A DNA stretch of 64,000 bases from a bacterium. GTDB lineage: Bacteria > Patescibacteriota > Saccharimonadia > UBA4664 > JBBRNT01. Below, piece after piece: positions 2,273-35,927 of the stretch. The DNA lies in assembly GCA_043767845.1 (NCBI GenBank), contig JAYUFZ010000018.1, forward strand, positions 3,312 through 67,311. The letters are read 5' to 3'. Positions within the stretch are counted from its first letter, which is position 1; the number at the start of each line of letters is the position of its first letter. Both the position numbers and the translations under genes were made by a program. Under the pieces are notes generated by a model that made no database searches, was not told the origin of the DNA, and was given only the letters and a program-made list of their open reading frames with translations.

Positions 2273-2959
2273 CTAATGCTGGGCAATCGTGGCGCCCCAG
2301 ACCGACCTGGCACCGGCTAGGCTGAGCGCTCTCGCCCCCTCGGCCAAAGTGGCGCCGGTGGTAATGACATCGTCGACGAGCAAAATGCGTGTGCCACGTA
2401 GCAGGCGGGGATAGCGGACATAGAACTGGCCTTCGACCTGCGACAGGCGCTCACTGCGCGATTTCCCAACTTGTCTGGTATTACCTAGGCGGCCAAGGGC
2501 GTTAACGACCGGCAGGTGGCAGAGCGTACTGAGCTCACGAGCTAGCAGTGCCGCCTGATTGTAGCCCCGGAAGCCGTAATGCGTGGCAGTGACCGGGATT
2601 GGCACCAGGAGGTCATAATGCGAAGCATCAATCCGCGGCACTAGCAACTCGGCCCCAAGCACGGCAAGGTCAGTAGCCTGTTCGTACTTGAGGCCAGCCA
2701 CTAATTGCTTGACTACTCCCTCATAGTACGAGGCGACTACAACGCCAGAGAGCGCCGTCTTGCCCAGGCAGCTCGGGCACGTTTTCCCCTCAGGGCTTAA
2801 CTTATTACACAAGTAGCAGACCGGCTGCTTGGCTACAATGGACCGGCTCAAGCAGTCCATACATAGTCGTCCACCCTGCCGACTACAGATCTGGCAACTC
2901 TGCGGCGCGATATAGTCTATGACCCGACCAAACAACTCCTGGTCCCCCTTAGCTAGCAA
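2273..2959 (-). CDS. comF: ComF family protein (double zinc ribbon + phosphoribosyltransferase domain)
   Basis: N-terminal CxxC...CxxC pairs (CQICSRQ...CMDCL, CYLCNK...CPSC). C-terminal PRTase motif 'ILLVDDVITTGATL'. Confidence 0.75.
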   Translation of the reverse strand: MLAKGDQELFGRVIDYIAPQSCQICSRQGGRLCMDCLSRSIVAKQPVCYLCNKLSPEGKTCPSCLGKTALSGVVVASYYEGVVKQLVAGLKYEQATDLAVLGAELLVPRIDASHYDLLVPIPVTATHYGFRGYNQAALLARELSTLCHLPVVNALGRLGNTRQVGKSRSERLSQVEGQFYVRYPRLLRGTRILLVDDVITTGATLAEGARALSLAGARSVWGATIAQH

Positions 2960-2972
2960 CCGAGTGTTGCTA
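2954..2972 (+). promoter_or_regulatory. inverted repeat TAGCAAC-cgagt-GTTGCTA overlapping a putative -35 (TTGCTA) 18 nt upstream of TATAAT (2991-2996); CIRCE-like candidate heat-shock operator for hsp20
   Basis: Perfect 7-bp inverted repeat read from sequence. Ends resemble the CIRCE half-sites (TTAGCA...TGCTAA) but the spacer is 5 not 9 nt. Sits directly upstream of the Hsp20 gene. Confidence 0.3.
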
Positions 2973-3072
2973 TTGTGTGATATATTTGACTATAATAGGC
3001 AAAAGGCTGCAGACATTGCAAACGTAACGGGATTGCAAGCCTCAAATAAGTGGAAAGTTGGAGGAGAGCCCG

Positions 3073-3504
3073 ATGGCAGGCAGGAAAAATGGCGGGAACA
3101 ATGAGGAGAATGTTTTGGAAGATGAATTTCTAGATGAATCGGCTGGAACCAGCGAAGACTGGATGGAAGAAGTTGAAGGCCAACTGGCTGTCGACGTTTA
3201 CCAAACCAAGGAAAATGTAGTTATTAAGGCTCCAATCGCCGGCGTAAAAGCCGAGGACATCGATATCAGCGTCTCTGAAGATGTAGTCACGCTCCGTGGT
3301 GAGCGGATTGAAGAGCGTGAAGTTGACCGTGAGCACTACTACGTTCAGGAGTGCTACTGGGGATCTTTCTCCCGCTCAGTCATCTTGCCAACTTCGACAG
3401 TCGCCGAGAAAGCACAAGCAAGCTTACGTGATGGTGTTCTGACTATCACTATTCCTAAGGTTGCTCAAGACAAGGTCAAGAAAATCAAAGTCCGCCCCGC
3501 GTAG
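3073..3504 (+). CDS. hsp20: Hsp20/alpha-crystallin family small heat shock protein
   Basis: 'VDVYQTKENVVIKAPIAGVKAEDIDISVSEDVVTLRGER...DGVLTITIPK' is a typical alpha-crystallin domain. ATG at 3073 is preceded by GGAGGAG (track start 3058 is a TTG inside that SD). Confidence 0.8.
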   Translation: MAGRKNGGNNEENVLEDEFLDESAGTSEDWMEEVEGQLAVDVYQTKENVVIKAPIAGVKAEDIDISVSEDVVTLRGERIEEREVDREHYYVQECYWGSFSRSVILPTSTVAEKAQASLRDGVLTITIPKVAQDKVKKIKVRPA

Positions 3505-3652
3505 GCTAGTAAGCTGCTGTATTTCGCGCGCTTCTGCGGCAGAGCCTGCGCTGCTCCTTCACCGTATTGCATATACGCCTCAGTCCGCTGCTCGGCTCTT
3601 TCTTGAATCGCATCGAACTACAGCAGCTTACAGGCTAGGACCAGGAATTAAA

Positions 3653-3679
3653 AAGACCCCATATGGGGTCTTTTTAATT
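3653..3679. terminator. bidirectional rho-independent terminator (AAGACCCC-atat-GGGGTCTT flanked by A/T runs)
   Basis: Perfect 8-bp stem with T-run on the plus strand and A-run upstream. Sits between convergent hsp20 (+) and the pilin-like array (-). Confidence 0.7.
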
Positions 3680-3814
3680 GAGCTAGCATTGCCGGTTGTG
3701 TAGGTTGATGCAGATCAAGGAGAACCGAGCACCGTAAGTGAGGCGTACTTCACGGTACGGTGAGTGCGGAGCGCAAGGTTCGACGCTGATATGCGCAACC
3801 TACGCGACCGGCAC

Positions 3815-4189
3815 TTAGACGCGGCCGGCGACGAAGGTGACGGCGGCAAATGCCAATGAGGCAACAATGATGCCGATGATAGCATAGAGAATGGTGTTTT
3901 TGGCACCTTCGACAGCACTGGAGTTACCACTGGAGAGGACGTAGCGGAAACCACCAATGATCAGCATGATCACTGAGATGGCGCCTACTAGGAAGATCAA
4001 GGTGTTTGCAACCTTGCTGAAGATACCGCCAGCACCGAACAGTACGTTGGTGGCGTTGTTTGGCTGTGAGCCATTGATGCCGTTAATCAGGTCATCTGGG
4101 GCAGCCATTGCTGTACCGGCCAGCACGAGCGATGAGGTTGCTACTGCTGTAGCTTTCGCCGCAAAATTATTAATAGTGCTTACTTTCAC
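3815..4189 (-). CDS. T4SS pilin candidate (VirB2/TrbC-like), paralog 1 of 5
   Basis: Signal peptide (...LAGTAMA|AP), then two hydrophobic helices joined by a short polar loop: 'LIFLVGAISVIMLIIGGFRYVLSSGNSSAVEGAKNTILYAIIGIIVASLAF'. Same topology as VirB2/TrbC pilins and adjacent to VirB6/VirB3/VirB4 genes. Confidence 0.5.
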   Translation of the reverse strand: MKVSTINNFAAKATAVATSSLVLAGTAMAAPDDLINGINGSQPNNATNVLFGAGGIFSKVANTLIFLVGAISVIMLIIGGFRYVLSSGNSSAVEGAKNTILYAIIGIIVASLAFAAVTFVAGRV

Positions 4190-4277
4190 GTTTTCTCCTA
4201 TGCGTCTAATAAATTTATGAGATTACTTAGCATTATCATACCATACAGGGCACAAATGCAAGCTAGACTAAGCCGGA

Positions 4278-4649
4278 TTACACACGCGCGGCAATGAAAT
4301 GCGAAATTGCAAAGGCCATGCTGGCTACGATCAAACCGATAATGGCGTAGAGAATCGTATCCTTGGCCCCGCTCACCGCACTGGAGTTGCCGCTGGAGAG
4401 GACGTAGCGGAAACCACCAATAATGAGCATAATCACCGAGGCGGCCCCGACAATGAATACTAGCGTATTGGCCACGGCCATAAACACGCCTCCCGGAGCG
4501 AATAGCTCTGTTTTGGCGCCAGCCGGCTTGGTGTTATCAATGCCGTCGGTCACGGCTTTGATGGCGCCATATACCGGGGATGACAGGGCGAGGCTAAAAC
4601 CTACAATGGCAGCGGCTTGAGTTCTTTTGATGAGTGTTTGAACAGACAT
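4278..4649 (-). CDS. T4SS pilin candidate (VirB2/TrbC-like), paralog 2
   Basis: Start moved to ATG 4649 (MSVQTLIKR...), preceded by AAGGAGA at -6..-12; the track start 4721 overlaps the upstream paralog. Carries the shared motif 'GGFRYVLSSGNSSAVSGAKDTILYAIIGLIV'. Confidence 0.5.
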   Translation of the reverse strand: MSVQTLIKRTQAAAIVGFSLALSSPVYGAIKAVTDGIDNTKPAGAKTELFAPGGVFMAVANTLVFIVGAASVIMLIIGGFRYVLSSGNSSAVSGAKDTILYAIIGLIVASMAFAISHFIAARV

Positions 4650-4668
4650 GATTGTCTCCTTAGGTGGT

Positions 4669-4974
4669 TTAGAAACGGCCCGAGATAAAGGACGAGATAG
4701 CATAGCCGGAAGCGGCCACAATAATACCTACTACAGCATACAGAATACCATCCTTGGCGCTCTTTACAGAGCTTGAATTACCGGCCGATATGACATAACG
4801 AAGGCCACTTACGATAAGGACAATTACCGAGATGACGCCGACAATGAGCAGCAAAGTGTTAACAATCTTTACTGCTACTTCAGAAAGTGAGCCGCTAAAG
4901 AAGCCGGGGCCGCTATCAACAATACCAGTGTTACCAACTGTGATATCAGCCAAGAAGGGGAGTATGTGGTGCAT
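4669..4974 (-). CDS. T4SS pilin candidate (VirB2/TrbC-like), paralog 3
   Basis: 'LLLIVGVISVIVLIVSGLRYVISAGNSSSVKSAKDGILYAVVGIIVAASGYAI': same two-helix hairpin and motif. Confidence 0.5.
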   Translation of the reverse strand: MHHILPFLADITVGNTGIVDSGPGFFSGSLSEVAVKIVNTLLLIVGVISVIVLIVSGLRYVISAGNSSSVKSAKDGILYAVVGIIVAASGYAISSFISGRF

Positions 4975-4989
4975 AGTGGTTTTCCGAAA

Positions 4990-5325
4990 TTAAAATAGTG
5001 TCGTTGCAAAGGCCAGGATCGCCCAGGTCGATAGCGTTACAATAAGCCCAATTACCGCGTAGAGCAAGGTGTCCTTGGCAGTTTTAGTACCGCTCGGGCT
5101 ACCAGCCGATAGAACATATCGCAAGCCGGCGACCACTATGAAGATGACCGACAGCGTGCCGGCGATGAAGAGAGCCAGGGCAACGACATTGTGGATGAGT
5201 TGCTGCACTGCGAACAAGCCGCCAGTCGTACTGTTGTTTGGGTCAACATTCTGGAAAAGCGAGTTTGGCACGGGGTCATCCGCCAAAAGTCTGGGAATAG
5301 TAGCTATAAGTGACCGTAGAATCAT
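4990..5325 (-). CDS. T4SS pilin candidate (VirB2/TrbC-like), paralog 4
   Basis: 'ALALFIAGTLSVIFIVVAGLRYVLSAGSPSGTKTAKDTLLYAVIGLIVTLSTWAILAF': same motif. Confidence 0.5.
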   Translation of the reverse strand: MILRSLIATIPRLLADDPVPNSLFQNVDPNNSTTGGLFAVQQLIHNVVALALFIAGTLSVIFIVVAGLRYVLSAGSPSGTKTAKDTLLYAVIGLIVTLSTWAILAFATTLF

Positions 5326-5328
5326 TGG

Positions 5329-5841
5329 TTAAATTCCTATTAAACGAAGAATGAAGAACATTAGGCTCAATACTATCAGACCGACGACGGCGTTGGCGAT
5401 GCGGTTTTTGGCTTTCTTGATAGCATCCGGGCTGCCCTGGGAGGAAATGAACTGTATCCCCGACACAATAATAACCAGCGCCGCCAACCCGCCAATAATC
5501 CCAAACAACCAGTTGATGGCGAATTCTAAGAGGGCGAAAATGGGGTTTTTATTCGTGCAGTTGAGTGTTAGGCCGGGAGTTGTAACCTTATCGCAGGTGT
5601 ATGGATCAGGTTGTGCAGGATTATTGCCAACTGCGGTACTGGTGTGGCTGTTGCAGTAAGCAACGCCTCCATCATCCTTAATCTCGTTCTCTGGAATAAC
5701 TGTCACGCCATCCGGGCAAAGCGCAGCCGCTCGAGCTACGGGAACGGAGGAGGGTTGAAGAGCTAGCCCGATTAAACCCAGTATAATTTGGAGAAATATC
5801 CCAAACGAAAGCATTAACACAAATTTGTAAAAACGTTTCAT
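5329..5841 (-). CDS. T4SS pilin-like paralog 5 with Cys-rich extracellular insertion
   Basis: Start uncertain (ATG 5841 MKRFYKF... or 5904). N-terminal TM, then a ~80-aa segment with 6 Cys (CPDG..YCNSH..YTCDK..LNCTNK). C-terminal 'IIGGLAALVIIVSGIQFISSQGSPDAIKKAKNRIANAVVGLIVLSLMF' matches the paralog motif. Confidence 0.45.
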   Translation of the reverse strand: MKRFYKFVLMLSFGIFLQIILGLIGLALQPSSVPVARAAALCPDGVTVIPENEIKDDGGVAYCNSHTSTAVGNNPAQPDPYTCDKVTTPGLTLNCTNKNPIFALLEFAINWLFGIIGGLAALVIIVSGIQFISSQGSPDAIKKAKNRIANAVVGLIVLSLMFFILRLIGI

Positions 5842-5957
5842 TGCCGTGATTGTAGCCGAATTCAGGTTGCAAGCGCAAGGGGAGGGCTGTGGAGTAGACT
5901 CCAAGCAAAGCCGTTAATTCAACCTTTTTACTATCTTTAAGCCCTATTTGCCAGCGT

Positions 5958-5998
5958 AAGCAAATTGCTTTGACAAACAGGAGTAAATAGTGTAGAAT
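5958..5998 (+). promoter_or_regulatory. near-consensus sigma70-type promoter for the VirB6-like operon: -35 TTGACA (5970-5975), 17-nt spacer, -10 TAGAAT (5993-5998), abutted by palindrome AAGCAA-A-TTGCTT (5958-5970)
   Basis: Hexamers and spacing read directly. The palindrome touching the -35 is a candidate operator in the divergent pilin/VirB6 intergenic region. Confidence 0.55.
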
Positions 5999-6037
5999 AC
6001 GAGATTCGTGAGCGCCAGAAACTAACGCTAATTAGCC

Positions 6038-8617
6038 ATGAGACATTTCTTCAAAAAATTTAGCCACACACCCCTTGTGCTTGGCCTTGGCGCCGTGGCG
6101 CTAGCTGTTGCAGTCCTTTTGAGCCCGGCCAAAGCAATGGCGGCCAGCGAAAGCTATTTCTATGGCCCGAGCTCCAATTTCAACACCGTCGTCGGCCAAA
6201 ACGGCGTCTTCGCCAAACCGACAGCCTTTACGCTAGCTTCGGAAACTGCTGATGCCAGGACTTATACCGCTACCCAATCCGTCACCTGCAGCAGCAAACC
6301 GGCCACTTCGACGCTTACACTGGTGGCCAAAAAAACCGACGGCAGCGGAAGCTTGGCAGTCGACGCTGCCACCGCCAGCTGCTATACCAGCGCCCCCGAT
6401 GCCACCATAGCTGTAGCCGACACCCAGGCGGCTGCCAAGCCGACAGTTCAGACTGCCGCAGCTGGGACTCCCGCGACAAGCAGACCCGCCGTCAAGCGAT
6501 GTGATGGTGGAGTTCTTACTTGGTTTCTATGTTCGCTCTATGATTGGATACTCAAATCAATCGACCAGATTGAACAAAACGTCATCGTACCCTTCCTCAA
6601 GATAGACCCGCTGGTCTTTGGAGACGCCAACAACCCCGGGTATGCCATTTGGCAAGGCGTGCGTACTCTAGCAAACGTCGTCTTTGTCTTGGCCTTTTTG
6701 GTCATTATATTTGCCAACACTCTTTCGCTGTCACTTGATAGCTACTCACTCAAAAAAACTCTGCCCAAGCTTGTAGCCGCGGCTATCCTGGTGCAGTTCT
6801 CATACTTAATCGTTGGGCTGGCCATCGACCTTACCAATATCGTTGGCTCTGGCCTAGGTGATTTGGTCATGACGCCCTTCAAGGTCGCCCAGCAGACCCA
6901 TATTAGTAATGGTGTAGCGGCGGGCCTCTGGGGCGTCGGCATCGCTGGTAGTATTTCCGCTACCTTGGCGCTCGCTAGTGGCGTGCTGACCGGTGGCATT
7001 CTATTCGTATTAATCGGTGCTTTCTTCGCAGTATTGGGCGTATTCTTAACGCTCGTGGCACGGCAGATTCTCGTGACACTACTGCTTATACTCTCTCCCT
7101 TGGCCTTCGTTGCTTGGGTGCTACCAAATACTAGCCATTACTTCACTATGTGGCGCAAATCGCTGACACGGCTACTAGTGATGTACCCGATTGTCGTTTT
7201 ACTGTTTGTGAGCGGCAAAATATTTAGTACCGTTACAGTGGCAGCCAACGGTGGTGGCGCAGGTAATGACACAATTCGTTCCCTTATAAGTGTCGTCGCT
7301 GGCGTTATTCCACTCTTCCTAATCCCTGCCGCCTTCAAATTTGCCGGTGCCGCGCTCTCAACAGTAGATGGCCTCATGCAGACAGTCCATGGCCGTAGCC
7401 GCAAAGCCTTCGAGGGATCGGGAGTTTACGAGCGGGCAAAAGCCCGTACAGACCAGCGCCGCACCGAACTGGCTAGCGGAAATAAGATTAAGTTCCTGGG
7501 CTCCAAGAAACTAGGCGACGCAATTACGGGCAATAGCCTCACGACATTAACAGCTCAGGGTCTGCCAGGCCTACTCTCGTATGGGGCCGATCACGCGCGG
7601 GCAAGCCTCAAGGGCGTTCCTTATGCTGGCTCGCACCAAGACGTCAAGGCTGTCTCTGACTTCATGAAAGAACGCAACGCCTGGGCTAAACGCCTTGAAG
7701 AAGAAGGCTTAAGCTTCAATGCCTATGCCGTACTAAGTAGAGGCAATAAGTGGGCCGACAAAGAAATAACTGACCTTAATGGCAAAGCTCAAACTGCTGC
7801 TACATCATCGCAAACTGCTGCTCAAACTGCTGCGAACTTCACGGCTGCTGCTCAAGCCTCTCGCCAAGCTGCGCAACAAGCAACAGCCGCGGGCAATACG
7901 ACCCTCGCAACGCAACTCAGCCAAACAGCCACCCAGCAAGATAGCGAAGCTTCCCGCCAGACGGCAATTTCCACGAGCCAGGCACGCAAGCACAGCGGCT
8001 TTCTTAGTGAAGTTAGCTCCATGCAAGGGGCAAAGCTGGAAGCAAGCCGCTATATGGGCGTCAGCGCCGCCCGTGTAGCTGCATTTAAACACCTTTCTGA
8101 CATCGATGTAGCTGGTGAGGACGACCTGAATGCACTTAAAAATTACTCTGGTATGGACGGAGGCTCAACAGTCGGTAAGTTGCTCGCTACCCAGAATTGG
8201 GAGCAACTAAAAGAAGGTGCACGAAAGACTAATGTACACTTGGCTTATAAGAATGTTGATGGCAGTATTGACAACACTGAGCTCTACAAGTTTGTTCAAA
8301 AGAAGAATAAAACAGCCTGGGCTGATTACTCGCTGGATGCCATCCATCACATGGCAGAAACCGGCATCTTGCATGAATTAGCAAAAGATGAAGGTATGCG
8401 CAAAACACTTACTGGAGCAACAAGCCTAGAGGGTGGTCCAAGCCTGGCTGCCCCGCAGGACGTCTTAGTACGCAAAATTCTCGCTGAAACCGACCCTGAT
8501 CCAGCCGTGCGAATCAATGGAACTTTCTCAAGCTACAACAAAAATACGGTCAAGACCTTTACTAAGGCCCAAAAGGACCAATCCAAAGCGAGCGCTGATA
8601 CTCTCGATTTCTCATAG
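6038..8617 (+). CDS. VirB6/TrbL-like T4SS polytopic membrane protein (paralog 1) with secreted N-domain and low-complexity C-terminal tail
   Basis: Signal peptide; conserved 'CDGGVLTWFLCSLYDWILKSIDQ...GYAIWQGVRTLANVVFVLAFLVIIFANTLS' block; about six TM segments. Paralogous to the next gene. Tail is Gln/Ala/Thr-rich. Confidence 0.6.
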   Translation: MRHFFKKFSHTPLVLGLGAVALAVAVLLSPAKAMAASESYFYGPSSNFNTVVGQNGVFAKPTAFTLASETADARTYTATQSVTCSSKPATSTLTLVAKKTDGSGSLAVDAATASCYTSAPDATIAVADTQAAAKPTVQTAAAGTPATSRPAVKRCDGGVLTWFLCSLYDWILKSIDQIEQNVIVPFLKIDPLVFGDANNPGYAIWQGVRTLANVVFVLAFLVIIFANTLSLSLDSYSLKKTLPKLVAAAILVQFSYLIVGLAIDLTNIVGSGLGDLVMTPFKVAQQTHISNGVAAGLWGVGIAGSISATLALASGVLTGGILFVLIGAFFAVLGVFLTLVARQILVTLLLILSPLAFVAWVLPNTSHYFTMWRKSLTRLLVMYPIVVLLFVSGKIFSTVTVAANGGGAGNDTIRSLISVVAGVIPLFLIPAAFKFAGAALSTVDGLMQTVHGRSRKAFEGSGVYERAKARTDQRRTELASGNKIKFLGSKKLGDAITGNSLTTLTAQGLPGLLSYGADHARASLKGVPYAGSHQDVKAVSDFMKERNAWAKRLEEEGLSFNAYAVLSRGNKWADKEITDLNGKAQTAATSSQTAAQTAANFTAAAQASRQAAQQATAAGNTTLATQLSQTATQQDSEASRQTAISTSQARKHSGFLSEVSSMQGAKLEASRYMGVSAARVAAFKHLSDIDVAGEDDLNALKNYSGMDGGSTVGKLLATQNWEQLKEGARKTNVHLAYKNVDGSIDNTELYKFVQKKNKTAWADYSLDAIHHMAETGILHELAKDEGMRKTLTGATSLEGGPSLAAPQDVLVRKILAETDPDPAVRINGTFSSYNKNTVKTFTKAQKDQSKASADTLDFS

Positions 8618-8699: not shown

Positions 8700-11600
8700 A
8701 TGAGAAGAGGTGTAGCAAAGGCTTGGTTAGCGGCATTGGGGCTGTCGCTAGTTTTGCCATTCCTGATTTCTGAAGGCGCTCTGGCCGCCCCACTTAGAAA
8801 AGGTGTTTGGCAAAATGATTCTGCCATTCTTTTTGATGCAAAAACCTTCATCAACAAAACTGGCGACGGGTCTGGCTCTTTTGTGTATGCCAAAGATAGT
8901 AAAGGTGTCGATATTCCTACATCCGACAATAATAATATTTATTGTGTTAAGGATGGAGATAAGATATTTGTGCAACTGGGACAAACTTACAGCGACTTTA
9001 GTACAAATTACGGCATCCCATTCTATGTAATTCGCGATATAAACGATGCTCATGATCGAGCCAACTATGATGTATATGCAAGACTTCTCGTCAATAATAA
9101 CGGTGCAGTATTAACACAGACTCAGTTTAATAGTAAAAAAGGTAGTGAGTCAGTACCAATCAGCTATTATATCCAGTGTCGCAAGACTCAAGCTGAAGAG
9201 CCTATTGAGCTTACAAATGCCTCTGTATCAACTGACGCGTATGCCTGGAAATGGAAAAACGAAATTGATTCCACGAATGGTAAGAAGGCTTGGATATTAA
9301 ATAGCACTGATCCCAAATTCCCTGTAGGCTCCTACGTTTGGCAGGCGGATACAAACCATGATGGCTGCAAAGAATATATCGTACCTAGTGCCGATGGTAC
9401 TAAAGGCAAAAGATATCATGGCGGAGGAAACTCAGCTGGAACTCCACCGCACTGTATCTACGACGATCCGCCAGAAGATATTACTATTGCTAACGCTACC
9501 CATAAAGACGATACGACGGATCCCGGTACCTCCCCTGGTAATCCAGTAAATCCAGGCGGATCAGGCAAGGCTAGTTGTGATGCTGGCGTCCTCGGATGGT
9601 TCTTGTGTCCAGTAATTCGCATGGCCGTGAACCTCTATCAGATTTTGAGCGACCAAGTCATCAAACTACTCGATCTAGGGTCTCTTGAAAGTGGTAGCAA
9701 TGTATTTCTTATATGGCAGAATATGCGCAATTTGGCCAATGTGCTCTTTGTATTAATCTTCCTGATTATCATATTCTCGAACACTCTCTCAATAGGTATT
9801 GATAATTACACCTTTAAAAAGATGCTCCCACGCCTCGTTGCCGCAGCGGTTCTTGTTCAGTTTTCCTGGGTAATCATGACCCTACTATTTGATATCACAG
9901 CGGCAGTTGGAGCGGGGATCGGTGACCTTATTAGTCTGGCAGTAGGTAGCGGTGTACCGAGTGCAGGTAGTACACCTAAAGGCTTTGCGCTAGTCGGAAC
10001 GGCCTTCGGGTTGCTTGGCATTGGCGGGGGGGCGATCGCTGCCATTGTACTTTTTCCTGAGCTCCTGATCCTAGCGCTTCTCTTTACAGTTGGGGCCCTC
10101 TTCGGAATCATGGCAGTATTCTTTACCATTACGATACGTTCTTTCTTGCTTTCCATACTAGTGGCAATTGCGCCGCTAGCTTTTGTGGCTTGGATCCTAC
10201 CAAATACCGAGAGCTACTTTAAAACCTGGTGGAAGACACTTATTCGACTGCTGCTCATGTATCCAATTATCAAGGCGATGTTCGCCTTCGCCGAGGTAGG
10301 CGGCCTACTTACGGTAGGATCAAATTTCTCTAATTTGCATAATGGGCTCGATAAGGCGATGGCGGGCGTTATGGCCGCCCTTTTGCCAATTGTAGCCTTC
10401 TACGCTACCACAAAAGTCTTTACCTGGGCGGGCGGTGCGATGTCGCTGTTTAGCAATGCAGTCAACAAGCGGGCTAGATCGGCCCAAGCGCGCATCGCTA
10501 AGTCCAACGTGCGACGAGACGCAAAAGTCGGGCTTACGAATCGGGTTGCAAACTTCAAAGCTGGTGGTGGGCTTAAGGTGCCACTAAGTTCTAGTCCTAT
10601 CCTAAACAGTGACTCCAGGCTGGGTAGGGCCGCAGCTGGGGCTGCGCGTATAGCTACCCTGACTTCCAAGAATAATGCTACAAGAGGTCGTAATACTGCT
10701 GCAAAGGCAGCTGGGGAAGCAATGGCACTTGAAGGCTGGACGGCGGATGATTATAAAATGCAGATGGGCCAAAAAACTTACTACGACAGCCAGACCGCCG
10801 ATCTCAAAAAGAAAGTCCAATCAGGTGAACTCACGCAGGCAGAGGCAGATCTTAAGCAGTCTAAGCTAAAAGCCAGTCGAGACCGTACCGAGAAGTATTG
10901 GGGAAGTAGTTCGAGGTCTCTTGCTGCTCAACAAAACCTCACTTCAAATGGCTTAGTCGACGACAGTACCCGACAAAACATTATTGACCGGTTCGGCAAG
11001 GACCAGTTTGCCCAGCAACTTTGGACTAATTCAGCAGCTACTGCACGAAACTCTAATCCCCAGCTTATGTTTACAAGCCTGGAGAGCGATGCAGCAGGCA
11101 AGCCGGTAATTGATCGAGCAGGGCTTAAGAGTCATCTGGCTAAGCAGAATCAAGCCACCTGGGCAAGCTTCAGTGAACCGGCTATTCAATCTATGGCCGA
11201 TAACGGTATCCTTGACGAATTCGCCAATGCCAGTAGCTCGAATGCCGAGCTTCTCCTTTCACTTCGATCAAACGAAGGCGGCCCTAGTATTGGTGCTGCT
11301 CAGCAAGCAATTATTGCCGGGGCAGGCACGCACAAAGACGACGCCGGCGTAATTCACAACCCTGGGTCCGTCAACAGGGCGATTGATGCAGTAGCTGCGT
11401 CCAGGGCAGCTGCACGGGCCACTGTAGGGACACCGGCAGGTTCAACAACAACTACCACAACAACTGCCGGCGGTGTTAGTGGCTCAGCGGCCAGCGCGTG
11501 GGCTCCGCCAAGTGGCGGCCTACCAGTCGGCAGCACAGTCCCAAGTATAGGTGGCGTTACCCCAGTCGCGACTCCAGTACCGACCGCGAGCGGTAAGGTG

Positions 11601-12398
11601 GCTTCCGTTGGAGGCTCCAGTTCTGGCGGTGTACTTGGCGGCGTTCTTGGTAGCAGTGGATCTTCAGGCGGCGGCGGTTCATACAGTCCAGGAGTTACGG
11701 CCTCAGCCGTTAGCAGCACACCGGGAAACCCCGGTGCCAACCCAAATACTTCCCGGATTACCCCACCGAGCTCAGTTGGCTGGACACCGACAGCTAGTGG
11801 CTCAGGGCTAGTAATCCCACCGAGCTCCGGCGCCCCGGCACCTACCGTATCAGGCCCGTCAGCACCATCACCAGAAGAGTTAGCCGAACGTGTTGAGCGA
11901 AGCGTGTTCGACGCTACAGCTGCAGCAAGAAAGGCAGCCGATGCAGGAGCTGCAGCAGCAGCCGCTACTTCAACCCCAACGGGCGCATCATCTGGCACCA
12001 CCACAGACTATGCCCCCGGATCAGGCATAAGCAACCCGGATATCGACGTTAAGGTCGAAGCCCCGAGCTCAGCAACAGTCCTCCCCTCGACAGCAGGTGC
12101 AGTACCATTCAGCGCAGGAGCGCCAGCTAGTACAGGGAATAGCAGCGCAACTGGTAGCCCAGCAGCAGGCATGGCCAATCCAGCCCCAGCTCTAGCCACG
12201 CCACCATCAAGCAAGCCTGTCGCGGGTCCAACAAATATGCCCACCAGCGAACCAAACAGCGGCCCAGCAGCTGCAAGCCCGACCCTGGACATCAACTCCA
12301 CGGAGCTACCCAGCCGCCCCTCACTCGGTGAAATAATTAGACCGACCGTAGCCTCCCCAGATGAGACCCCTCCGGCCGATCCACCAACGACTCCATAG
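8700..12398 (+). CDS. VirB6/TrbL-like T4SS polytopic membrane protein (paralog 2), 1232 aa, with ~600-aa Ser/Thr/Pro/Ala/Gly-rich C-terminal tail
   Basis: Start moved to ATG 8700 (MRRGVAKAWLAALGLSLVLPFLISEGALA = signal peptide), downstream of the terminator. Conserved 'CDAGVLGWFLCPVIRMAVNLYQ...FLIWQNMRNLANVLFVLIFLIIIFSNTLS' plus TM bundle. The tail has TTTTTT, SSGSSGGGGS and AAAAAAT runs. Confidence 0.6.
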   Translation: MRRGVAKAWLAALGLSLVLPFLISEGALAAPLRKGVWQNDSAILFDAKTFINKTGDGSGSFVYAKDSKGVDIPTSDNNNIYCVKDGDKIFVQLGQTYSDFSTNYGIPFYVIRDINDAHDRANYDVYARLLVNNNGAVLTQTQFNSKKGSESVPISYYIQCRKTQAEEPIELTNASVSTDAYAWKWKNEIDSTNGKKAWILNSTDPKFPVGSYVWQADTNHDGCKEYIVPSADGTKGKRYHGGGNSAGTPPHCIYDDPPEDITIANATHKDDTTDPGTSPGNPVNPGGSGKASCDAGVLGWFLCPVIRMAVNLYQILSDQVIKLLDLGSLESGSNVFLIWQNMRNLANVLFVLIFLIIIFSNTLSIGIDNYTFKKMLPRLVAAAVLVQFSWVIMTLLFDITAAVGAGIGDLISLAVGSGVPSAGSTPKGFALVGTAFGLLGIGGGAIAAIVLFPELLILALLFTVGALFGIMAVFFTITIRSFLLSILVAIAPLAFVAWILPNTESYFKTWWKTLIRLLLMYPIIKAMFAFAEVGGLLTVGSNFSNLHNGLDKAMAGVMAALLPIVAFYATTKVFTWAGGAMSLFSNAVNKRARSAQARIAKSNVRRDAKVGLTNRVANFKAGGGLKVPLSSSPILNSDSRLGRAAAGAARIATLTSKNNATRGRNTAAKAAGEAMALEGWTADDYKMQMGQKTYYDSQTADLKKKVQSGELTQAEADLKQSKLKASRDRTEKYWGSSSRSLAAQQNLTSNGLVDDSTRQNIIDRFGKDQFAQQLWTNSAATARNSNPQLMFTSLESDAAGKPVIDRAGLKSHLAKQNQATWASFSEPAIQSMADNGILDEFANASSSNAELLLSLRSNEGGPSIGAAQQAIIAGAGTHKDDAGVIHNPGSVNRAIDAVAASRAAARATVGTPAGSTTTTTTTAGGVSGSAASAWAPPSGGLPVGSTVPSIGGVTPVATPVPTASGKVASVGGSSSGGVLGGVLGSSGSSGGGGSYSPGVTASAVSSTPGNPGANPNTSRITPPSSVGWTPTASGSGLVIPPSSGAPAPTVSGPSAPSPEELAERVERSVFDATAAARKAADAGAAAAAATSTPTGASSGTTTDYAPGSGISNPDIDVKVEAPSSATVLPSTAGAVPFSAGAPASTGNSSATGSPAAGMANPAPALATPPSSKPVAGPTNMPTSEPNSGPAAASPTLDINSTELPSRPSLGEIIRPTVASPDETPPADPPTTP

Positions 12399-12534: not shown

Positions 12535-13356
12535 ATGGGCCAGTACAAAGTCCCACAAAACGTTGAGGCGGAAGACAAGATCCTTGGGCCACTGACGCTC
12601 AAGCAGTTTATCTATGCCATCATTGCCGTCGGGGTGGCTGTCGTGACTTACCTCATCGGCAAGTACCTGCCATTCGTCTACATTGCCGGTGTTCCGCCAG
12701 CCCTGCTCTTTGCCCTGCTAGCCACTCCCCGAGGCGATAAGCAGCCCTTCGAGGCCCTCTTCCTGGCCCTGGTCAGCTTCACGGTCAAGCCGCGCAAGCG
12801 CGTATGGCTCAAAGACCCAATCGCCGAAGTCTTCATGATCGAAGCCCCCAAGCCAGTGGAGGAGGCCCCTGCCGTCGATTCCCGCCAAGTCCACGGGCAA
12901 CTCGAGAAATTATCCCAGATCATCGATACTCGCGGCTGGGCGGCCAAGCAGCCTGACATCCAGGAGCCCGACTCCACGTACTTCGATAATCTCACTACCG
13001 ACGACCGCCTAGCCTCGGTGGAGTACGTAACGGTTGGCGACATTAATAGCGACATTAGTGTGGCCGACGACATTCTAGACTTCAAAAACAACCCGTCGGC
13101 CCAAAACCTCGATCAGCTCATCGAAGACAGCGTGGCCAACGTCCGCCTAGAGGCCATGCAGAAGATGCGCGAGCAAGCCAACCATCCAGCCCCAACAACT
13201 GGCGGCGGAGCAATGACCCCGCAAGCTTCTAATGCTATACTGAGACAAGCGATGAGTAGTTCGGAGTTAACGGTTAGCCAAGTTGCGGCTCAAGCCCAGC
13301 GCTACGGACGACTCGAAGAAGGTCAGAAAGTGGAGATATATAATGGCAGCAACTAA
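12535..13356 (+). CDS. PrgI/VirB3-like T4SS membrane protein with acidic C-terminal extension
   Basis: N-terminus 'KVPQNVEAEDKILGPLTLKQFIYAIIAVGVAVVTYLIG...' matches the PrgI-family signature (KIxGPLTxKQ + TM hairpin). TATAAT lies 9 nt before the ATG. Confidence 0.6.
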   Translation: MGQYKVPQNVEAEDKILGPLTLKQFIYAIIAVGVAVVTYLIGKYLPFVYIAGVPPALLFALLATPRGDKQPFEALFLALVSFTVKPRKRVWLKDPIAEVFMIEAPKPVEEAPAVDSRQVHGQLEKLSQIIDTRGWAAKQPDIQEPDSTYFDNLTTDDRLASVEYVTVGDINSDISVADDILDFKNNPSAQNLDQLIEDSVANVRLEAMQKMREQANHPAPTTGGGAMTPQASNAILRQAMSSSELTVSQVAAQAQRYGRLEEGQKVEIYNGSN

Positions 13357-14416
13357 TCAAAAGATTGCCAGCAATCCAAATAGTCAGCTGAAAAGCACGC
13401 AAAACAGCATGCTTATTTCAGAGATTAAGGATGGGATTGTGATACTCAAGGACGGCACTATGCGGGCCGTAGTGCTAGCAAGCGCCATCAACTTCGACTT
13501 GATGAGCCGCCAGGAACAAGACGCCGTCGAGTACAGCTACCAGGGCTTCCTGAACTCACTACATTTCCCAATCCAGATCGTCGTGCGCTCTCAGAAAATC
13601 GACCTCGACCGCTACATCGAGACACTTACCGAACTGCGCGCCAACCAAGGCAATGAGCTGCTCGGACTACTCATGGAAGATTATATTGCCAACATCAAGG
13701 CCCTCATCGACGAAGTAAACATTATGAATAAGCAGTTCTATGTGGTCGTGCCCTACGACCCACCAGTCATTACCAAAACTGGCTTTTTCGATAAGCTCGG
13801 CGGCATCGTGAAGGGGGCTGGCGTTACAGTGGTGAGCGAGCAGGACTTCGCCAACTATAAGACTGAGCTGTCGCAGCGGGTCGCACTGGTAGCCAGCGGA
13901 CTCAACCAGCTGGGCATCCGGGCCATCCCGCTCAATAGCCAAGAACTCATCGACCTCTACTACTCGACATACAATCCCGACGTCGCCGCCAACCAAAAAC
14001 TCATCGACAGCAGCCAGCTGCAAACGCCTGTCGTTTTGCGTAGCGATCAGCCAACCAACACCAGCTACCGCCAAGCCCTGCCAGAAGCCGCTGCCGACTT
14101 TACTGTAGCCCCGGCTTCATCACCTATCGACAACCAGCCGGCAATGCAGATACCGACCCGCTCGGACATCCCGACCTCCAATATGCCAATGGTCGCCCCC
14201 GAAGAACCCCCGACGGCACCAATTACGCAGCCAGGCCCGCTCCCCGAGTACTACGCCCAGCCAGCCGCGCCCGTTCAAGCTCCTGTGGCGGGTGACCCGA
14301 ATGCCGTCATCGACAATCCCAACGCCTACGATCCTTTCATCATCCAGCAGAACCAGGCGGCCTTAGCCGCTGCCCAGGCAGTCGCACCAACTACCACTGA
14401 ACCAGGAGCACAGTAA
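13343..14416 (+). CDS. VirB4 N-terminal domain protein (separate ORF) with Pro-rich disordered C-terminus
   Basis: Start at ATG 13343 overlaps the upstream stop (ATGGCAGCAACTAA). 'IKDGIVILKDGTMRAVVLASAINFDLMSRQEQDAVEYSYQGFLNSLHFPIQIVVRSQKID' resembles the N-terminal region of Gram-positive VirB4/TraE-family ATPases. Tail is P/A/Q-rich. Confidence 0.5.
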   Translation: MAATNQKIASNPNSQLKSTQNSMLISEIKDGIVILKDGTMRAVVLASAINFDLMSRQEQDAVEYSYQGFLNSLHFPIQIVVRSQKIDLDRYIETLTELRANQGNELLGLLMEDYIANIKALIDEVNIMNKQFYVVVPYDPPVITKTGFFDKLGGIVKGAGVTVVSEQDFANYKTELSQRVALVASGLNQLGIRAIPLNSQELIDLYYSTYNPDVAANQKLIDSSQLQTPVVLRSDQPTNTSYRQALPEAAADFTVAPASSPIDNQPAMQIPTRSDIPTSNMPMVAPEEPPTAPITQPGPLPEYYAQPAAPVQAPVAGDPNAVIDNPNAYDPFIIQQNQAALAAAQAVAPTTTEPGAQ

Positions 14417-14418: not shown

Positions 14419-16269
14419 ATGGCCTTCGGAAAAAAAGTTGATCCAAACGCTCAGGCAGAGGCGGTAAAGCGCCAAGAACAGGCTGAAGCCGAGCAGATTT
14501 ACCGCCAGGGAATCGTCTCGCTGCGCGACCTGATTGCTCCGCCATCGCTGGAGATTGAGTCTGGCTATTTCCGCATCGGCAAGCGCTTTGCTCGGACAAT
14601 ATTCGTCTACGGCTACCCCCGCCAAATATTCACCGGCTGGATGTCACCGATCATAAATCTCGATGAAGTGCTGGACCTTAGCATTAATATTTATCCGGTC
14701 GAGTCAGCCGTCGTTTTAAATAACCTGAAGCGTAAGGTAGGCCAGCTAGAGGCCGATTTCACCATCAACCAGGAAAAGGGGAGAGTACGCGACCCCGGGC
14801 TTGAAGCCGCCATCCAGGACGCCGAGGAATTGCGCGACAAGCTCCAGGTCGGCGAGGAGCGCTTCTTCCGTTTCGGGCTATATGTCACGATGTACGCTGG
14901 CACGCTTGAGGAACTCAATCAAGTACAGCGCAAGATCGAAGGCATATTCGGCCAATCACTTATCTATACCAAGCCAGCTACCCTTCAAATGGAGCAGGGC
15001 TTTAATTCCAGCCTACCGCTCGGCGCCGACCAGCTCCAAGTGTCGAGAAATATGGATACTGGTTCGCTTTCGACAAGCTTCCCCTTCACCTCGGCCGAAC
15101 TCAGCCGCAATGAAGGCGTGCTCTACGGCCTCAACCGCCACAATAACGGTCTAGTGCTCTTCGACAGATTTAGCCTGGAAAATGCCAATATGGTTGTCTT
15201 CGCTAAATCCGGTGGTGGTAAATCCTTCGCCGTGAAGCTTGAAGCCGTACGCAGCCTGATGCTCGGCGTTGAGATATTGATTATCGATCCCGAGAACGAG
15301 TACCAGACGCTCTGCGACGCAGTTGGCGGTAGCTACCTTCGCCTCAGCCTAGCCTCGGCCACCCGCCTGAATCCCTTCGATCTGCCGCACGTACTCGATA
15401 GCGAGGATGCCGACAACGCTTTGCGCGCCAATATTATTACCCTCCATGGCCTTTTGCGACTGATGATGGGGGGTGCCCAAGCCCAAGCCATGGGTGCGGC
15501 TACCGGCGGCATGGTCTCGAGTGCCAATGCTCTCAGCCCAGCCGAGGACGCTGACCTCGACGTGGCCATCATAAATACCTACGCCCGCGCCGGGATTACC
15601 AATGACCCACTGACCCATGGCGCCACCCCACCAACCATGAACGATCTCTACAACACGCTAGTAAGTATGACTGGCAACGGTCCAGCCCTAGCCCAGCGTC
15701 TGCGTAAATACACCACGGGTACTTTTTCTGGAATCTTTAGCCAGCAGTCCAACGTCGATATCAATAATAAGTTTGTGGTCTTTAATATTCGTGACCTAGA
15801 AGACGAGCTCCGCCCAGTGGCTATGTACATTGTGCTCAACTACATTTGGAACCGGGTCAAAAGTGATAAGCGCAAACGTATTCTGATAGTCGACGAAGCC
15901 TGGCAGCTCATGAAGTACGATGACTCCGCCAACTTCATGTTCTCTATAGCCAAGCGCGCCCGTAAGTATTACCTCGGCCTCACTACTATTTCGCAAGATG
16001 TGGAAGATTTCTTAAGCTCCAGGCTTGGTAGGGCAGTGGTCTCCAACTCCTCACTTCAACTCTTGCTCAAGCAAGCGCCCTCTGCCGTCGACCTCATAGC
16101 CGATACCTTCAAGCTGACCGACGAGGAAAAGAAACGCCTTACCCAATTCCCGGTGGGCGAGGGCCTCTTCTTCGCGGGCCTCAACCATATTATTATTAGA
16201 ATACTGGCCTCACAAACTGAGTCGCAACTCATAAGCACGAACCCGCAACGAAGAGGGGACGGAGTATAG
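14419..16269 (+). CDS. virB4: VirB4/TraE-family T4SS ATPase (ATPase portion)
   Basis: Walker A 'VVFAKSGGGKSFAVK', Walker B 'ILIVDEAWQLM', and 'RTIFVYGYPRQIFTGWMSPI' typical of VirB4. Starts 2 nt after the previous stop, in a different frame. Confidence 0.8.
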   Translation: MAFGKKVDPNAQAEAVKRQEQAEAEQIYRQGIVSLRDLIAPPSLEIESGYFRIGKRFARTIFVYGYPRQIFTGWMSPIINLDEVLDLSINIYPVESAVVLNNLKRKVGQLEADFTINQEKGRVRDPGLEAAIQDAEELRDKLQVGEERFFRFGLYVTMYAGTLEELNQVQRKIEGIFGQSLIYTKPATLQMEQGFNSSLPLGADQLQVSRNMDTGSLSTSFPFTSAELSRNEGVLYGLNRHNNGLVLFDRFSLENANMVVFAKSGGGKSFAVKLEAVRSLMLGVEILIIDPENEYQTLCDAVGGSYLRLSLASATRLNPFDLPHVLDSEDADNALRANIITLHGLLRLMMGGAQAQAMGAATGGMVSSANALSPAEDADLDVAIINTYARAGITNDPLTHGATPPTMNDLYNTLVSMTGNGPALAQRLRKYTTGTFSGIFSQQSNVDINNKFVVFNIRDLEDELRPVAMYIVLNYIWNRVKSDKRKRILIVDEAWQLMKYDDSANFMFSIAKRARKYYLGLTTISQDVEDFLSSRLGRAVVSNSSLQLLLKQAPSAVDLIADTFKLTDEEKKRLTQFPVGEGLFFAGLNHIIIRILASQTESQLISTNPQRRGDGV

Positions 16270-19266: not shown

Positions 19267-21049
19267 ACGGTATCTTCTCAACCTCACCATGATCGTCATG
19301 ATGTTCTCTTCTATGGTGATTACTCCAGCCGCTTATGGCTTTTCAGACGCAGATCGTAATGCCATGCTCAATGATAGTGTTTGGTTTGACTCCTCCAATG
19401 TTACATGCGGCACCAACTCCGGCGGTACTGCACCTGGTAGTGGCGGTTTATATAGCCCCTTCTATCCCACAGGAGCAAATGAAGCACAATTGGCACAGAG
19501 CATCGTAGACTACATCACCAAAAGGCAGCCGAGTTCTCCACTCATTCCACTAGCGGGGAGCTTCGTTTCGCTTGGCAAAGCAGCTAATGTAAACCCAGCG
19601 ATGGCTGTCGGCATGTCTCAGATTGAGACCTCTTTCGCGACTGCTGGCCACGCCGCACCCCCGCTCTATAATTTCTTTAATGTGAGAAATGGACCAGGGG
19701 GTACGTTTGGTAGTATGCCCGGCTACATTGGGGCACTACAGAACTACTATGATCTGATTAGTGGTCCTGTTTACCTGAGCCCACCAACAAGCTTCACAAC
19801 GGTAAATGAGATCGTAAATAAATATGCACCACTCGGTGATGGCGCCAATGACCCCACAGCCTACACGAACGTAGTGAATAATGCTATGAAGGACATCCTT
19901 GGTGGAGCCGGCGCAACTGCCGCAAGCGGGTCGGCTGACACAGGCGCTACCACCAGCGGTACACTTACGAGCCTGCCCACGAGCGTCCCGGAACCATACC
20001 GCACCCTGTTTCCGAAAGCAGCCCAAGCCTTCAATATGGATCTTGGGATATTAACTACCATATTTTATACGGAGAACCGCGGGTTCCCCAATCCACCACC
20101 ACCCTATGGGACGGGACGTGCATGGAGAACATCGTCAGCTGGTGCGCAGGGTCCATTCCAGTTTGTGCCGGGTACCTGGGCAGGACAGGTCGCTGCTGTG
20201 AAAACGGCACTAGGCAAAACCAGCGTGGACATCCTTGATCTCACCGATGCCGCCTATGGCGCGGCACACTTCCTGGAATCGCTTGGTGGTACAGCTGGTA
20301 TTCCACTGGGCAGCAAAGATAACCCCAAACAACGGCCAAGCGTTATCGATGTATTCGCATCATATAATGGAGGCCCGGGCTATCCCGTACCTTTAGTCGC
20401 CGAGACATCACAGTACATCGATATTGCCACGAAGTTCTACCTTGCACTCACTGGTGGCAGTCTCGGCACGACCCCGACTATTTGTGGGGGCGGGGGCGGC
20501 GGTATAGGAATTGGCACCGATGGCTTTGTCTTTCCACAACGAACCACCAAATCGGCCCTGAAAGCCGCCGGCTTCAATGTAAATTGTGTAAATACGGGTC
20601 CAATTGGCCAATGCCATCACGATTATCTAGCAGCTGATATCTTCAATTCGACCGGAACACCCGTGGTAGCAGCTCGCCCAGGAAGAGTAGTCTCGGCGCA
20701 TGACGGCGGTAATATCAGTACAGGTGGCGGATCAATCGGTATGACCGTCCGAATCTATAGCGACACAGCGTTGGGAGGCGATGGGCTTTGGTATTACTAT
20801 GCCCATATGCTTAAGCCACAAGAATCACCAGCTGGTGGGCTCAAGGTAAAAGACGGCGATATCGTGACTGCTGGTCAGGATTTGGGTGTCGTAGGGACCG
20901 ATGCCGATGCCGAGGGCACGCCATCACACACCCATTTCGATGTGAGCCCCGTAGAAAATAGCTTCCATCGTGGCCACGACGGGAGTGCCGGGCCGCTACT
21001 CGACCCCTATCCAGCTCTAAGAGCAAGTTATGCTAACTTACCGGATTAA
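19256..21049 (+). CDS. bifunctional peptidoglycan hydrolase: lytic transglycosylase (SLT) + M23 (LytM) peptidase
   Basis: Start at ATG 19256 (signal peptide MDAKRYLLNLTMIVMMFSSMVITPAAYG), overlapping the upstream stop. SLT motifs 'YTENRGF...GPFQFVPGTW...AAYGAAHFL'. M23 motifs 'HHDYLAADIF' (HxxxD) and 'HTHFDV' (HxH). Confidence 0.7.
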   Translation: MDAKRYLLNLTMIVMMFSSMVITPAAYGFSDADRNAMLNDSVWFDSSNVTCGTNSGGTAPGSGGLYSPFYPTGANEAQLAQSIVDYITKRQPSSPLIPLAGSFVSLGKAANVNPAMAVGMSQIETSFATAGHAAPPLYNFFNVRNGPGGTFGSMPGYIGALQNYYDLISGPVYLSPPTSFTTVNEIVNKYAPLGDGANDPTAYTNVVNNAMKDILGGAGATAASGSADTGATTSGTLTSLPTSVPEPYRTLFPKAAQAFNMDLGILTTIFYTENRGFPNPPPPYGTGRAWRTSSAGAQGPFQFVPGTWAGQVAAVKTALGKTSVDILDLTDAAYGAAHFLESLGGTAGIPLGSKDNPKQRPSVIDVFASYNGGPGYPVPLVAETSQYIDIATKFYLALTGGSLGTTPTICGGGGGGIGIGTDGFVFPQRTTKSALKAAGFNVNCVNTGPIGQCHHDYLAADIFNSTGTPVVAARPGRVVSAHDGGNISTGGGSIGMTVRIYSDTALGGDGLWYYYAHMLKPQESPAGGLKVKDGDIVTAGQDLGVVGTDADAEGTPSHTHFDVSPVENSFHRGHDGSAGPLLDPYPALRASYANLPD

Positions 21050-23604: not shown

Positions 23605-23776
23605 CTTTTGCCTACATTAACCCCACCTATTCCCATCGATCGTCATCTCGACCAGAGTGGAGAGATCTATCTAAGTCCTTGATTAGCTTCATCGTGAATA
23701 TCTATCATTAGATCTCTCGGCTACGCTCGAGATGACGATCGAGGAGCCCAAACAAAAGAGCGTCTGCTGCGAGCGA

Positions 23777-24889: not shown

Positions 24890-24896
24890 GTTTTCC

Positions 24897-35915: not shown

Positions 35916-35927
35916 AGCTGGTTTGTC

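Follow-up and report, generated by a model that had tools for sequence, protein, structure and literature searches.

Five old paralogs probably forming the VirB2-like pilin array of a chromosomal type IV secretion system in Saccharimonadia

We analysed a 64,000-nucleotide (nt) stretch of chromosomal DNA from a Saccharimonadia bacterium (contig JAYUFZ010000018.1, hereafter the window), in which five tandem genes occupy positions 3815-5904 of the minus strand. These genes very probably constitute a VirB2-like pilin array of a chromosomal, monoderm-type type IV secretion system (T4SS), with specialised subunits and a gene order like that of SEML1_0014-0019, the six-pilin array of Ca. Southlakia epibionticum ML1 (Wang et al. 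2023, Cell; PMC10633639). The reading draws on the family membership and hairpin fold of the products, on their T4SS neighbourhood by the replication origin, on synteny, and on paralogs that are old and that group with pilins at matching positions in other genomes. An initial annotation of the window had already described five pilin-like paralogs here; the array it saw is real, though several of its details were overstated.

The genes are numbered so that transcription runs in the order P5, P4, P3, P2, P1, making P5 the first gene and P1 the last. All five open reading frames (ORFs; listed at 3815-4189, 4278-4721, 4669-4974, 4990-5325 and 5329-5904) score above the gathering cut-off of 26.6 bits for the Pfam family PF18895 (T4SS_pilin), with matches of 30.6-39.6 bits; agreement on this scale goes well past anything due to chance and bears out the call of five tandem pilin-like genes. 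The span of 3815-5904 needs correcting at the level of single genes, since the P2 and P5 ORFs are over-extended at their 5' ends through upstream TTG codons (to 4721 and 5904) relative to the public gene calls, which begin P2 at 4649 and P5 at 5841. Moving the P2 start to the ATG at 4649 removes its apparent overlap with P3. The last gene, P1 (3815-4189, minus strand), encodes 124 residues from a GTG start (30.6 bits) and coincides exactly with public gene call P0011. P2 (4278-4649, minus) encodes 123 residues beginning MSVQTL, behind a Shine-Dalgarno (SD) sequence AAGGAG (31.7 bits; P0036), and P3 (4669-4974, minus) encodes 101 residues (34.0 bits). The 111-residue P4 (4990-5325, minus; 37.2 bits) starts 3 nt past the stop of P5 (5329-5841, minus), whose 170 residues begin MKRFYKF at the ATG at 5841 (39.6 bits; P0001).

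At E<=1e-5, P1 has 3,546 relatives in the database. PF18895 was present in all of the 120 that were listed, and in public sources relatives go under the names 'pilin' and 'Type IV secretion system pilin'. In searches with profile hidden Markov models (HMMs), the family hit by all five window proteins was PF18895, the very one that the initial annotation had named. All five also match NF045849, the 'Mbov_0395 family pilin-like conjugal transfer protein' model, weakly (20-27 bits against a cut-off of 40). Together with the gene neighbourhood and the synteny described below, the PF18895 matches support the proposed reading of these proteins as VirB2/TrbC-like T4SS pilins.

The two-helix hairpin postulated for these proteins was recovered as well. 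Hydropathy gives two long hydrophobic C-terminal helices joined by a short polar, basic loop in all five pilins, and AlphaFold2 predicts helices at residues 56-84 and 90-123 of P1, with a confidence score (pLDDT) above 95, and at 100-133 and 138-168 of P5. In P1 the hairpin covers residues 56-124, and the Arg and Lys of the loop (R82 and K97 in P1 numbering) are nearly invariant or invariant across the 120 relatives. Fold searches with the hairpin return thousands of unrelated hairpins, and such a search cannot discriminate a two-helix hairpin. Matches to heliorhodopsin (E~8), which arose when a profile of the 120 relatives was compared with all PDB sequences, were dismissed as chance. A signal peptide or N-terminal anchor had been claimed for every paralog, which appears to hold for P1, P2 and P5 but not across the array. 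The N-termini of these three read by eye as signal peptides or anchors (putative cleavage at ...AMA/AP in P1 and ...VYG/AI in P2), although only P2 and P5 pass an N-terminal hydropathy threshold. P3 has an acidic N-terminal tail of about 30 residues with no N-terminal hydrophobic segment by hydropathy, and in P4 a short stretch might be a signal sequence, though a doubtful one.

The array lies divergent from a plus-strand T4SS operon. Its first gene (6038-8617, plus) encodes an 859-residue polytopic membrane protein without a Pfam match of its own, which we assign as VirB6/TrbL-like from its similarity (35% identity, E=3e-133) to a 713-residue protein bearing PF19590 TrbL_3 in L082, one of the related loci (given L numbers) described below. 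A second, extended VirB6-like paralog follows at 8700-12398 (plus), with 28% identity (E=4e-51) to the 940-residue protein at the same position in L082. Its ORF runs from 8517 and shares 100 nt with the gene before it, the likely start being at 8700 (MRRGVAKAW...), and its C-terminal ~450 residues are of low complexity, rich in Pro, Ser, Thr, Ala and Gly. Downstream, all on the plus strand, lie genes for a PrgI-family (VirB3-like) protein (12535-13356; PF12666, 50.2 bits), a TrsD/TraD-like protein resembling a VirB4 N-terminal domain (13283-14416, start uncertain; NF041427 and NF045975, both below cut-off; its syntenic gene in L082 carries PF26593, TraC-like), a VirB4-like ATPase of the CD1110 family (14419-16269; NF045971 at 373.5 bits against a cut-off of 325, with PF19044 and PF12846), and two large cell-wall hydrolases (16273-21049), one with a VanY domain and the other with M23 plus SLT, which we take as probably serving a VirB1/PrgK-like function. 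The pilins thus belong to a cluster that contains VirB4, VirB3/PrgI and VirB6. Because recF, dnaN and dnaA (22531-26560, minus) adjoin it, with rnpA, yidC (27384-28139) and mnmE beyond, the cluster sits beside the replication origin. No relaxase or coupling protein was found among the scanned genes of the window, consistent with published surveys, which makes DNA a less likely substrate than protein or other cargo that comes from the host or is directed at it.

The other flank of the array carries an Hsp20 gene (3058-3504, plus) and a ComFC-like gene (2273-2959, minus), a pair also present in L082 and represented in S. epibionticum by SEML1_0020/0021. According to Tables S1/S2 of the Southlakia study, the order there is dnaA-dnaN-recF, hydrolases, VirB4, PrgI, VirB6-like genes, six divergent PF18895 pilins, Hsp20 and ComFC (PMC10633639). 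The window therefore matches both S. epibionticum and L082 in gene order, sharing tandem PF18895 genes divergent from a VirB6-like gene near dnaA, the PrgI, VirB4 and hydrolase genes, and the Hsp20 and ComFC flank. Gene sizes agree too, with a pilin of ~100 residues mid-array and pilins of ~125-140 residues at the end. In S. epibionticum all six array pilins were called essential (ES) at the two later time points of transposon sequencing, while a solitary seventh pilin was non-essential (PMC10633639). The window differs in having five array genes rather than six and in a first pilin whose insert is longer and contains four Cys. It also has no solitary extra pilin gene anywhere in its 64 kb, having instead two tandem genes of the P1 type. 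In many related loci such a solitary pilin lies 1.5-4 kb off the array on the opposite strand, SEML1_0024 being a gene of this kind.

We next consider how the paralogs relate to one another. The motif said to be common to them, GGFRYVLSSGNSS, is exact in P1 and P2, but P3 (SGLRYVISAGNSS), P4 (AGLRYVLSAGSPS) and P5 (SGIQFISSQGSPD) depart from it. Likewise the cores, described as nearly identical, are close only between P1 and P2 (54/69 positions, 78%), the remaining pairs sharing 28-57%. Overall pairwise identity ranges over about 23-58%, with P1/P2 at 58-60%. Synonymous sites are saturated in every pair (synonymous divergence, pS, of 0.68-1.0), including the P1/P2 core (0.75), and are heavily diverged (pS 0.53-0.83) between the window and the closest genome, the Saccharimonadia isolate La1_metabat2.191 (L002). 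For this reason the ratio omega (dN/dS) is not meaningful among the paralogs or against L002; the saturation itself indicates that the paralogs are old. An identical run of 29 nt shared by P1 and P2 had suggested that gene conversion had acted on the pair recently, an idea that the core pS of 0.75 led us to reject. P2 is, as judged from these divergences, an old duplicate of the P1 type.

A scan that took a single genome for each species gave 568 relatives, from which 80 loci were kept, mostly labelled as Saccharibacteria or Saccharimonadia metagenome-assembled genomes (MAGs), and an HMM built from the window pilins and their relatives was applied to 84 fetched loci. Complete arrays were present in 54 of the 84, with four (7 loci), five (13), six (30), seven (3) or eight (1) genes, so that an array of five is ordinary and one of six the commonest. 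Array size and the gene lengths at each position are conserved across the loci examined. Both in best BLAST hits and in a neighbour-joining tree of an 84-column core, the window paralogs group with pilins that hold corresponding positions elsewhere: P5 with the position-1 pilins of other genomes, P1 within the clade of last-position pilins, P2 just outside that clade, P4 with position 3 of L002 and P3 with its position 4. Position-specific subfamilies are thus common to several genomes, as far as BLAST and a short tree without support values can tell, and the window does not show the recent lineage-specific amplification into redundant variants that marks the Bartonella/Anaplasma type.

The N-terminal, presumably exposed, segments had been proposed as the variable part, and this proved to be so: among the 120 P1 relatives the mean frequency of the top residue is ~0.8 in the core against 0.5 in the mature N-terminus. 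At least two P1-like pilins occur in 48 of the 84 loci. Three of 65 within-genome pairs of such pilins, those of L002, L011 and L051, combine a homogenised core (pS 0.00-0.09) with a divergent N-terminal half (pS 0.53-0.88); they lie at 9947-10885 in L002, at 1016-2008 in L011 and, in L051, at 2654-3037 paired with a solitary pilin (4410-4829 or 5098-5511). The mosaics suggest core gene conversion or exchange of exposed segments, for which this is the expected pattern. On this evidence the surface of the major-type pilin does vary at times in Saccharimonadia, but P1 and P2 of the window are not a case of it.

P5 is set apart by its N-terminus, in which an anchor or signal is followed by an insert of ~55 residues and a TPGL..C..KNPIF motif ahead of helix 1. 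The six Cys residues attributed to it reduce to four (C42, C63, C83 and C95), the other two lying in the untranslated extension of the ORF (...PCAC...). A search with P5 found 10 database sequences including P5 itself, and on this count it belongs to a rarer pilin subfamily, within which the Cys just ahead of helix 1 is nearly invariant. A Cys pair 8-11 residues apart directly before the hairpin also recurs in many of the position-1 pilins listed from 72 arrays, and corresponds to C83 and C95 of P5; C42 and C63 lie in the insert, which is poorly conserved among the P5 relatives. The commonest numbers of Cys upstream of the core in position-1 pilins are two (29 of 72) and four (12 of 72), counts that are slightly inflated by having been taken on the longest ORFs, and the N-terminal modules of these pilins span from ~25 to more than 400 residues. 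Of the suggestion that the insert is disulfide-stabilised and exposed, the recurrence of the Cys pair before helix 1 speaks in favour, but the insert itself models poorly (pLDDT below 50 over residues 28-95, from 10 homologues). Disulfide bonding on the exposed side of P5 is plausible on this basis.

Another way to view the specialisation of the paralogs is through their spacing and promoters. A gap of 88 nt precedes P1, with an SD sequence AGGAG at 4199-4195, and contains a promoter-like site read from the sequence at 4235-4262 (minus), with CTTGCA at 4262-4257 and an extended -10 element, TGG-TATGAT, at 4243-4235. The TATGAT lies 45 nt ahead of the P1 start, and L002 has the same geometry (TGG/TGC-TATGAT). 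Across the arrays the gap before the last gene has a median of 70 nt, compared with -1 nt for the other gaps, where genes abut or overlap. A strong extended -10 promoter was found upstream of 20 of 54 last genes, as against 1 of 199 internal genes and 3 of 270 shuffles; its form is of the sigma-70 type, TTAACA-N17-TGnTATAA, followed by a ribosome-binding site of the GAAAGGA or AAGGAG type (for example in L059, L070, L035 and L019). At the head of the array a candidate promoter can be read at 5849-5878 (minus), with TTGCGC (5878-5873; only 3/6 at the -35), an 18-nt spacer and a TACAAT (5854-5849) that ends 7 nt ahead of the P5 ATG, where there is no SD sequence. This 7-nt spacing, with a better -35, is present in 12 of 54 arrays compared with 8 of 253 other genes, mostly in the clade of the window (L047, L082, L005, L003 and L002); it is seen in L033, L030, L026 and L010 as well, and suggests that the array mRNA is leaderless in this Saccharimonadia clade. 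A divergent promoter-like site for the T4SS operon lies at 5970-5998 (plus; TTGACA-17-TAGAAT, 11/12). The promoter argument rests on conservation across genomes, because a generic scan of 3500-6200 for promoters and terminators gave sites no more numerous than in shuffles.

Conservation singles out the same gene. The highest-scoring cross-genome matches of all five window pilins are of the last-position type, and the P1 core shares 57 of 69 residues (83%) with the P1 counterpart in L002, compared with 49-67% identity for the cores of P3-P5; by these comparisons pilins of the last-position type vary least from genome to genome. We infer from this conservation, together with a promoter-like site of its own and a strong SD sequence (AGGAG), that P1 is likely to be the major pilin.

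These features can be assembled into a proposed mechanism. By analogy with VirB2, TraA and TrbC, the pilins would insert in the membrane as two-helix hairpins with both termini outside, P1, P2 and P5 by way of Sec and their signal peptides, and P3 and P4 by YidC-type insertion of the N-terminal tail, a yidC gene being at hand. The conserved basic loop (R82...K97 in P1) would then face the cytoplasm and, after polymerisation, the lumen, with the N-terminus turned outward. The VirB4/VirB3/VirB6 machine would extract the pilins and polymerise them, and the product would be a pilus or a short conduit that crosses the wall toward the host bacterium. The subunits would not be interchangeable: P1 would be the major pilin and P2 an old duplicate of its type, while P3, P4 and P5 may be minor or initiating subunits translated off a tightly packed, probably leaderless transcript, with P5, of the position-1 type, displaying a variable and probably disulfide-bonded N-terminal module at the surface or tip. 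More tentatively, this could be a heteromeric monoderm T4SS pilus with a fixed division of labour, in which the last-position P1 type forms the shaft and the position-1 P5 type is the initiator or tip, using a Cys-x(8-11)-Cys loop and its variable N-terminal module to set which host is engaged; we regard this as a possibility and not as the expected outcome. To our knowledge, no VirB2 family currently has such a fixed division of labour.

Two functional readings were offered for the array at the outset, and that of major plus minor pilins fits better than that of interchangeable copies serving antigenic or host-range variation. On the latter account the array would hold redundant pilins whose N-terminal diversity lets the cell evade host defences or switch host strains, as has been proposed for the VirB2 paralog arrays of Bartonella and Anaplasma, a reading put forward by Quinonero-Coronel et al. 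2025 (PMC12102498). It draws on the variable N-termini, on the many loci with two or more P1-like pilins and on the cassette-like mosaics. It would not predict saturated synonymous sites in every window pair, P1/P2 included, nor paralogs that group with same-position pilins elsewhere in arrays of conserved size and per-position length, nor would redundancy be expected of six Southlakia pilins that are all called essential; silent cassettes or repeats pointing to switching are also lacking here. Old, position-specific paralogs and the Southlakia essentiality thus favour non-redundant subunits, and we consider interchangeable variants improbable for this window. A weaker form of the idea survives in the variable exposed N-termini and in the 3/65 P1-like pairs with a homogenised core and a divergent N-terminus.

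A greater share of our doubt concerns whether the pilins form an extended pilus at all, or only membrane-embedded channel subunits or an envelope stub, comparable with the 'uncoupling' functions of VirB2 and with the pilin-like proteins of integrative and conjugative elements (ICEs) in Mycoplasma, which has no wall. We think the channel rather unlikely to be the whole story, but the weak NF045849 matches of all five genes point toward mycoplasma ICEs, a lone PF18895 gene stands beside PrgI and VirB4 on a Priestia megaterium plasmid, and the literature reports no T4SS pilus for Patescibacteria or other monoderms. Five to six specialised paralogs with signal peptides and variable exposed N-termini bearing a Cys pair seem excessive for a buried lining, and the account overlaps with a pilus array, differing from it solely in the length of the polymer. 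It is very improbable that the genes encode small Sec-secreted T4SS effectors or substrates. That notion has a history, in that the TM7x literature names T4SS-adjacent genes putative effectors and the corresponding array was once labelled a 'Sec secreted array' (cited in PMC12102498), and signal peptides can be read in three of the five genes here. Two long, confidently predicted C-terminal hydrophobic helices are unlike a soluble effector, however, all five products match a pilin HMM, and the same paper re-reads the TM7x array as VirB2 pilins. Finally, an unrelated small membrane protein, such as a holin or a bacteriocin immunity protein, might merely resemble the hairpin, since hairpins of this kind are generic and fold searches return unrelated ones by the thousand. 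PHROGs gave no match to a holin or phage family (the sole hit, at E=0.0078, was to a family of unknown function) and nothing relevant to a phage origin, which was rejected; no bacteriocin or lysis genes lie nearby, and the position in a T4SS cluster is conserved in Saccharimonadia, in Ca. Southlakia and on a Bacillota plasmid. We give this explanation next to no credence.

The identification of a pilin array with specialised subunits has several results to contend with. None of the five window pilins matches PF04956 (TrbC/VirB2) at E<=0.1; among the 120 listed P1 relatives 15 match it (best E 5e-6) and 6 match CagC, so that homology to classical VirB2/TrbC, as read from these profiles, is transitive only. 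The profile of the 120 relatives found no pilin among PDB sequences. The tree that groups the paralogs by position has only 84 columns and no support values, the promoter match at P1 in the window itself is weak (score 9), and the Southlakia essentiality calls could partly reflect transposon polarity onto the last gene. A 2025 review treats a T4SS pilus in Patescibacteria as a possibility only (PMC12857230), and we found no later paper showing a pilus or filament on any Patescibacteria T4SS.

Among described systems, the window matches the VirB2 arrays surveyed by Quinonero-Coronel et al. 2025 (PMC12102498). Their survey of Patescibacteria counts 441 arrays, each of 2-11 VirB2-like genes, across 383 assemblies. 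Saccharimonadia and Microgenomatia have them most often, the genes lie close to virB4 and dnaA, and most clusters lack a relaxase. Divergence within arrays is comparable (mean identity 25% in that account and 23-58% in the window), the 58-60% of P1/P2 being slightly above the maximum of 54% given there. The antigenic or host-range idea is raised in the same paper by analogy with Bartonella and Anaplasma. As described there, the VirB2 arrays of Bartonella and Anaplasma phagocytophilum resemble the window in having tandem T4SS pilin genes with divergent exposed parts; they are lineage-specific amplifications for antigenic variation, whereas the window paralogs are old and position-matched across genomes. 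The position-matched grouping, the internal promoter and the Cys pair are not mentioned in that paper's passages on pilins, VirB2 and paralogs.

The diderm pilins VirB2, TrbC and TraA (PF04956; T-pilus and F-pilus) resemble those of the window in their small size, in a short basic loop between two hydrophobic helices and in genes that lie beside VirB3, VirB4 and VirB6; they have a signal peptide, as three of the window pilins plausibly do. Diderm T4SSs usually have one pilin and not several specialised paralogs. Unlike them, the window system belongs to a monoderm host and lacks VirB5, VirB7, VirB9, VirB10 and VirB11; two of its paralogs have no clear signal peptide, and assembly into a filament is only predicted. 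The pilins of monoderm conjugative elements (NF045849 of mycoplasma ICEs, and P. megaterium plasmid pFDU301A) share the hairpin and the place beside PrgI and VirB4, but are single-copy and borne on mobile elements. On pFDU301A (L085; NZ_CP045273.1, 8845-13071) a single unannotated PF18895 gene (41.8 bits) lies just upstream of a gene of the PrgI family and one for a VirB4-like P-loop ATPase, with a gene resembling those of type IV coupling proteins (T4CP) nearby. Only two weak hits came from a tblastn search of P1 against 72,556 plasmids, one of them within a Bacillota T4SS cluster, so plasmids do not commonly carry a pilin of this family. The pFDU301A gene and the weak Mbov_0395 matches nevertheless indicate that VirB2-like pilins occur in some monoderm T4SSs outside the Patescibacteria, which is relevant to the published idea that the pilin of Patescibacteria was co-opted from diderm systems.

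Other features of the window and of the collected loci deserve mention. Directly past the ComFC/Hsp20 flank, 433-2271 encodes an exported protein of 612 residues with Ig-like domains (Big_5, Big_10) and a Peptidase_C39_2 domain, which could be a surface protease or adhesin. A surface-polysaccharide cluster at 29962-46017 contains several GT4 glycosyltransferases, a GDP-mannose 4,6-dehydratase and a Polysacc_synt flippase, as well as an 881-residue protein resembling Wzy_C/O-antigen ligases and an 838-residue protein with an Ig-like domain. Saccharimonadia-type arrays were also found on contigs filed under other taxa, namely L003 (titled Candidatus Nanoarchaeia archaeon), L025 (Acidobacteriota), L066 (Magnetospirillaceae), L005/L034 (Parcubacteria) and L037 (Woesebacteria); these labels probably reflect binning contamination or misclassified MAGs.

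Both the observation of such an array and its interpretation are already in print (PMC10633639, PMC12102498), and the window does not reveal a new kind of system. What the analysis modestly adds is evidence for specialised, position-specific pilin subfamilies, for a last gene promoted separately and for a Cys pair that recurs in the first gene. Few of the systems enriched in Patescibacteria have been shown to be essential for life as an epibiont, and the T4SS with its pilins is one of them, the requirement being known for S. epibionticum only. The paralogs of the window have the look of fixed subunits with specialised roles, not of a repertoire that varies. The variable, Cys-bearing module of the first gene would be a natural candidate for a host-recognition element, and these results could guide work in strains that can be cultivated, among them S. 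epibionticum and TM7x. If the heteromeric pilus model is true, it would open a tangible way into the host specificity of Saccharibacteria.

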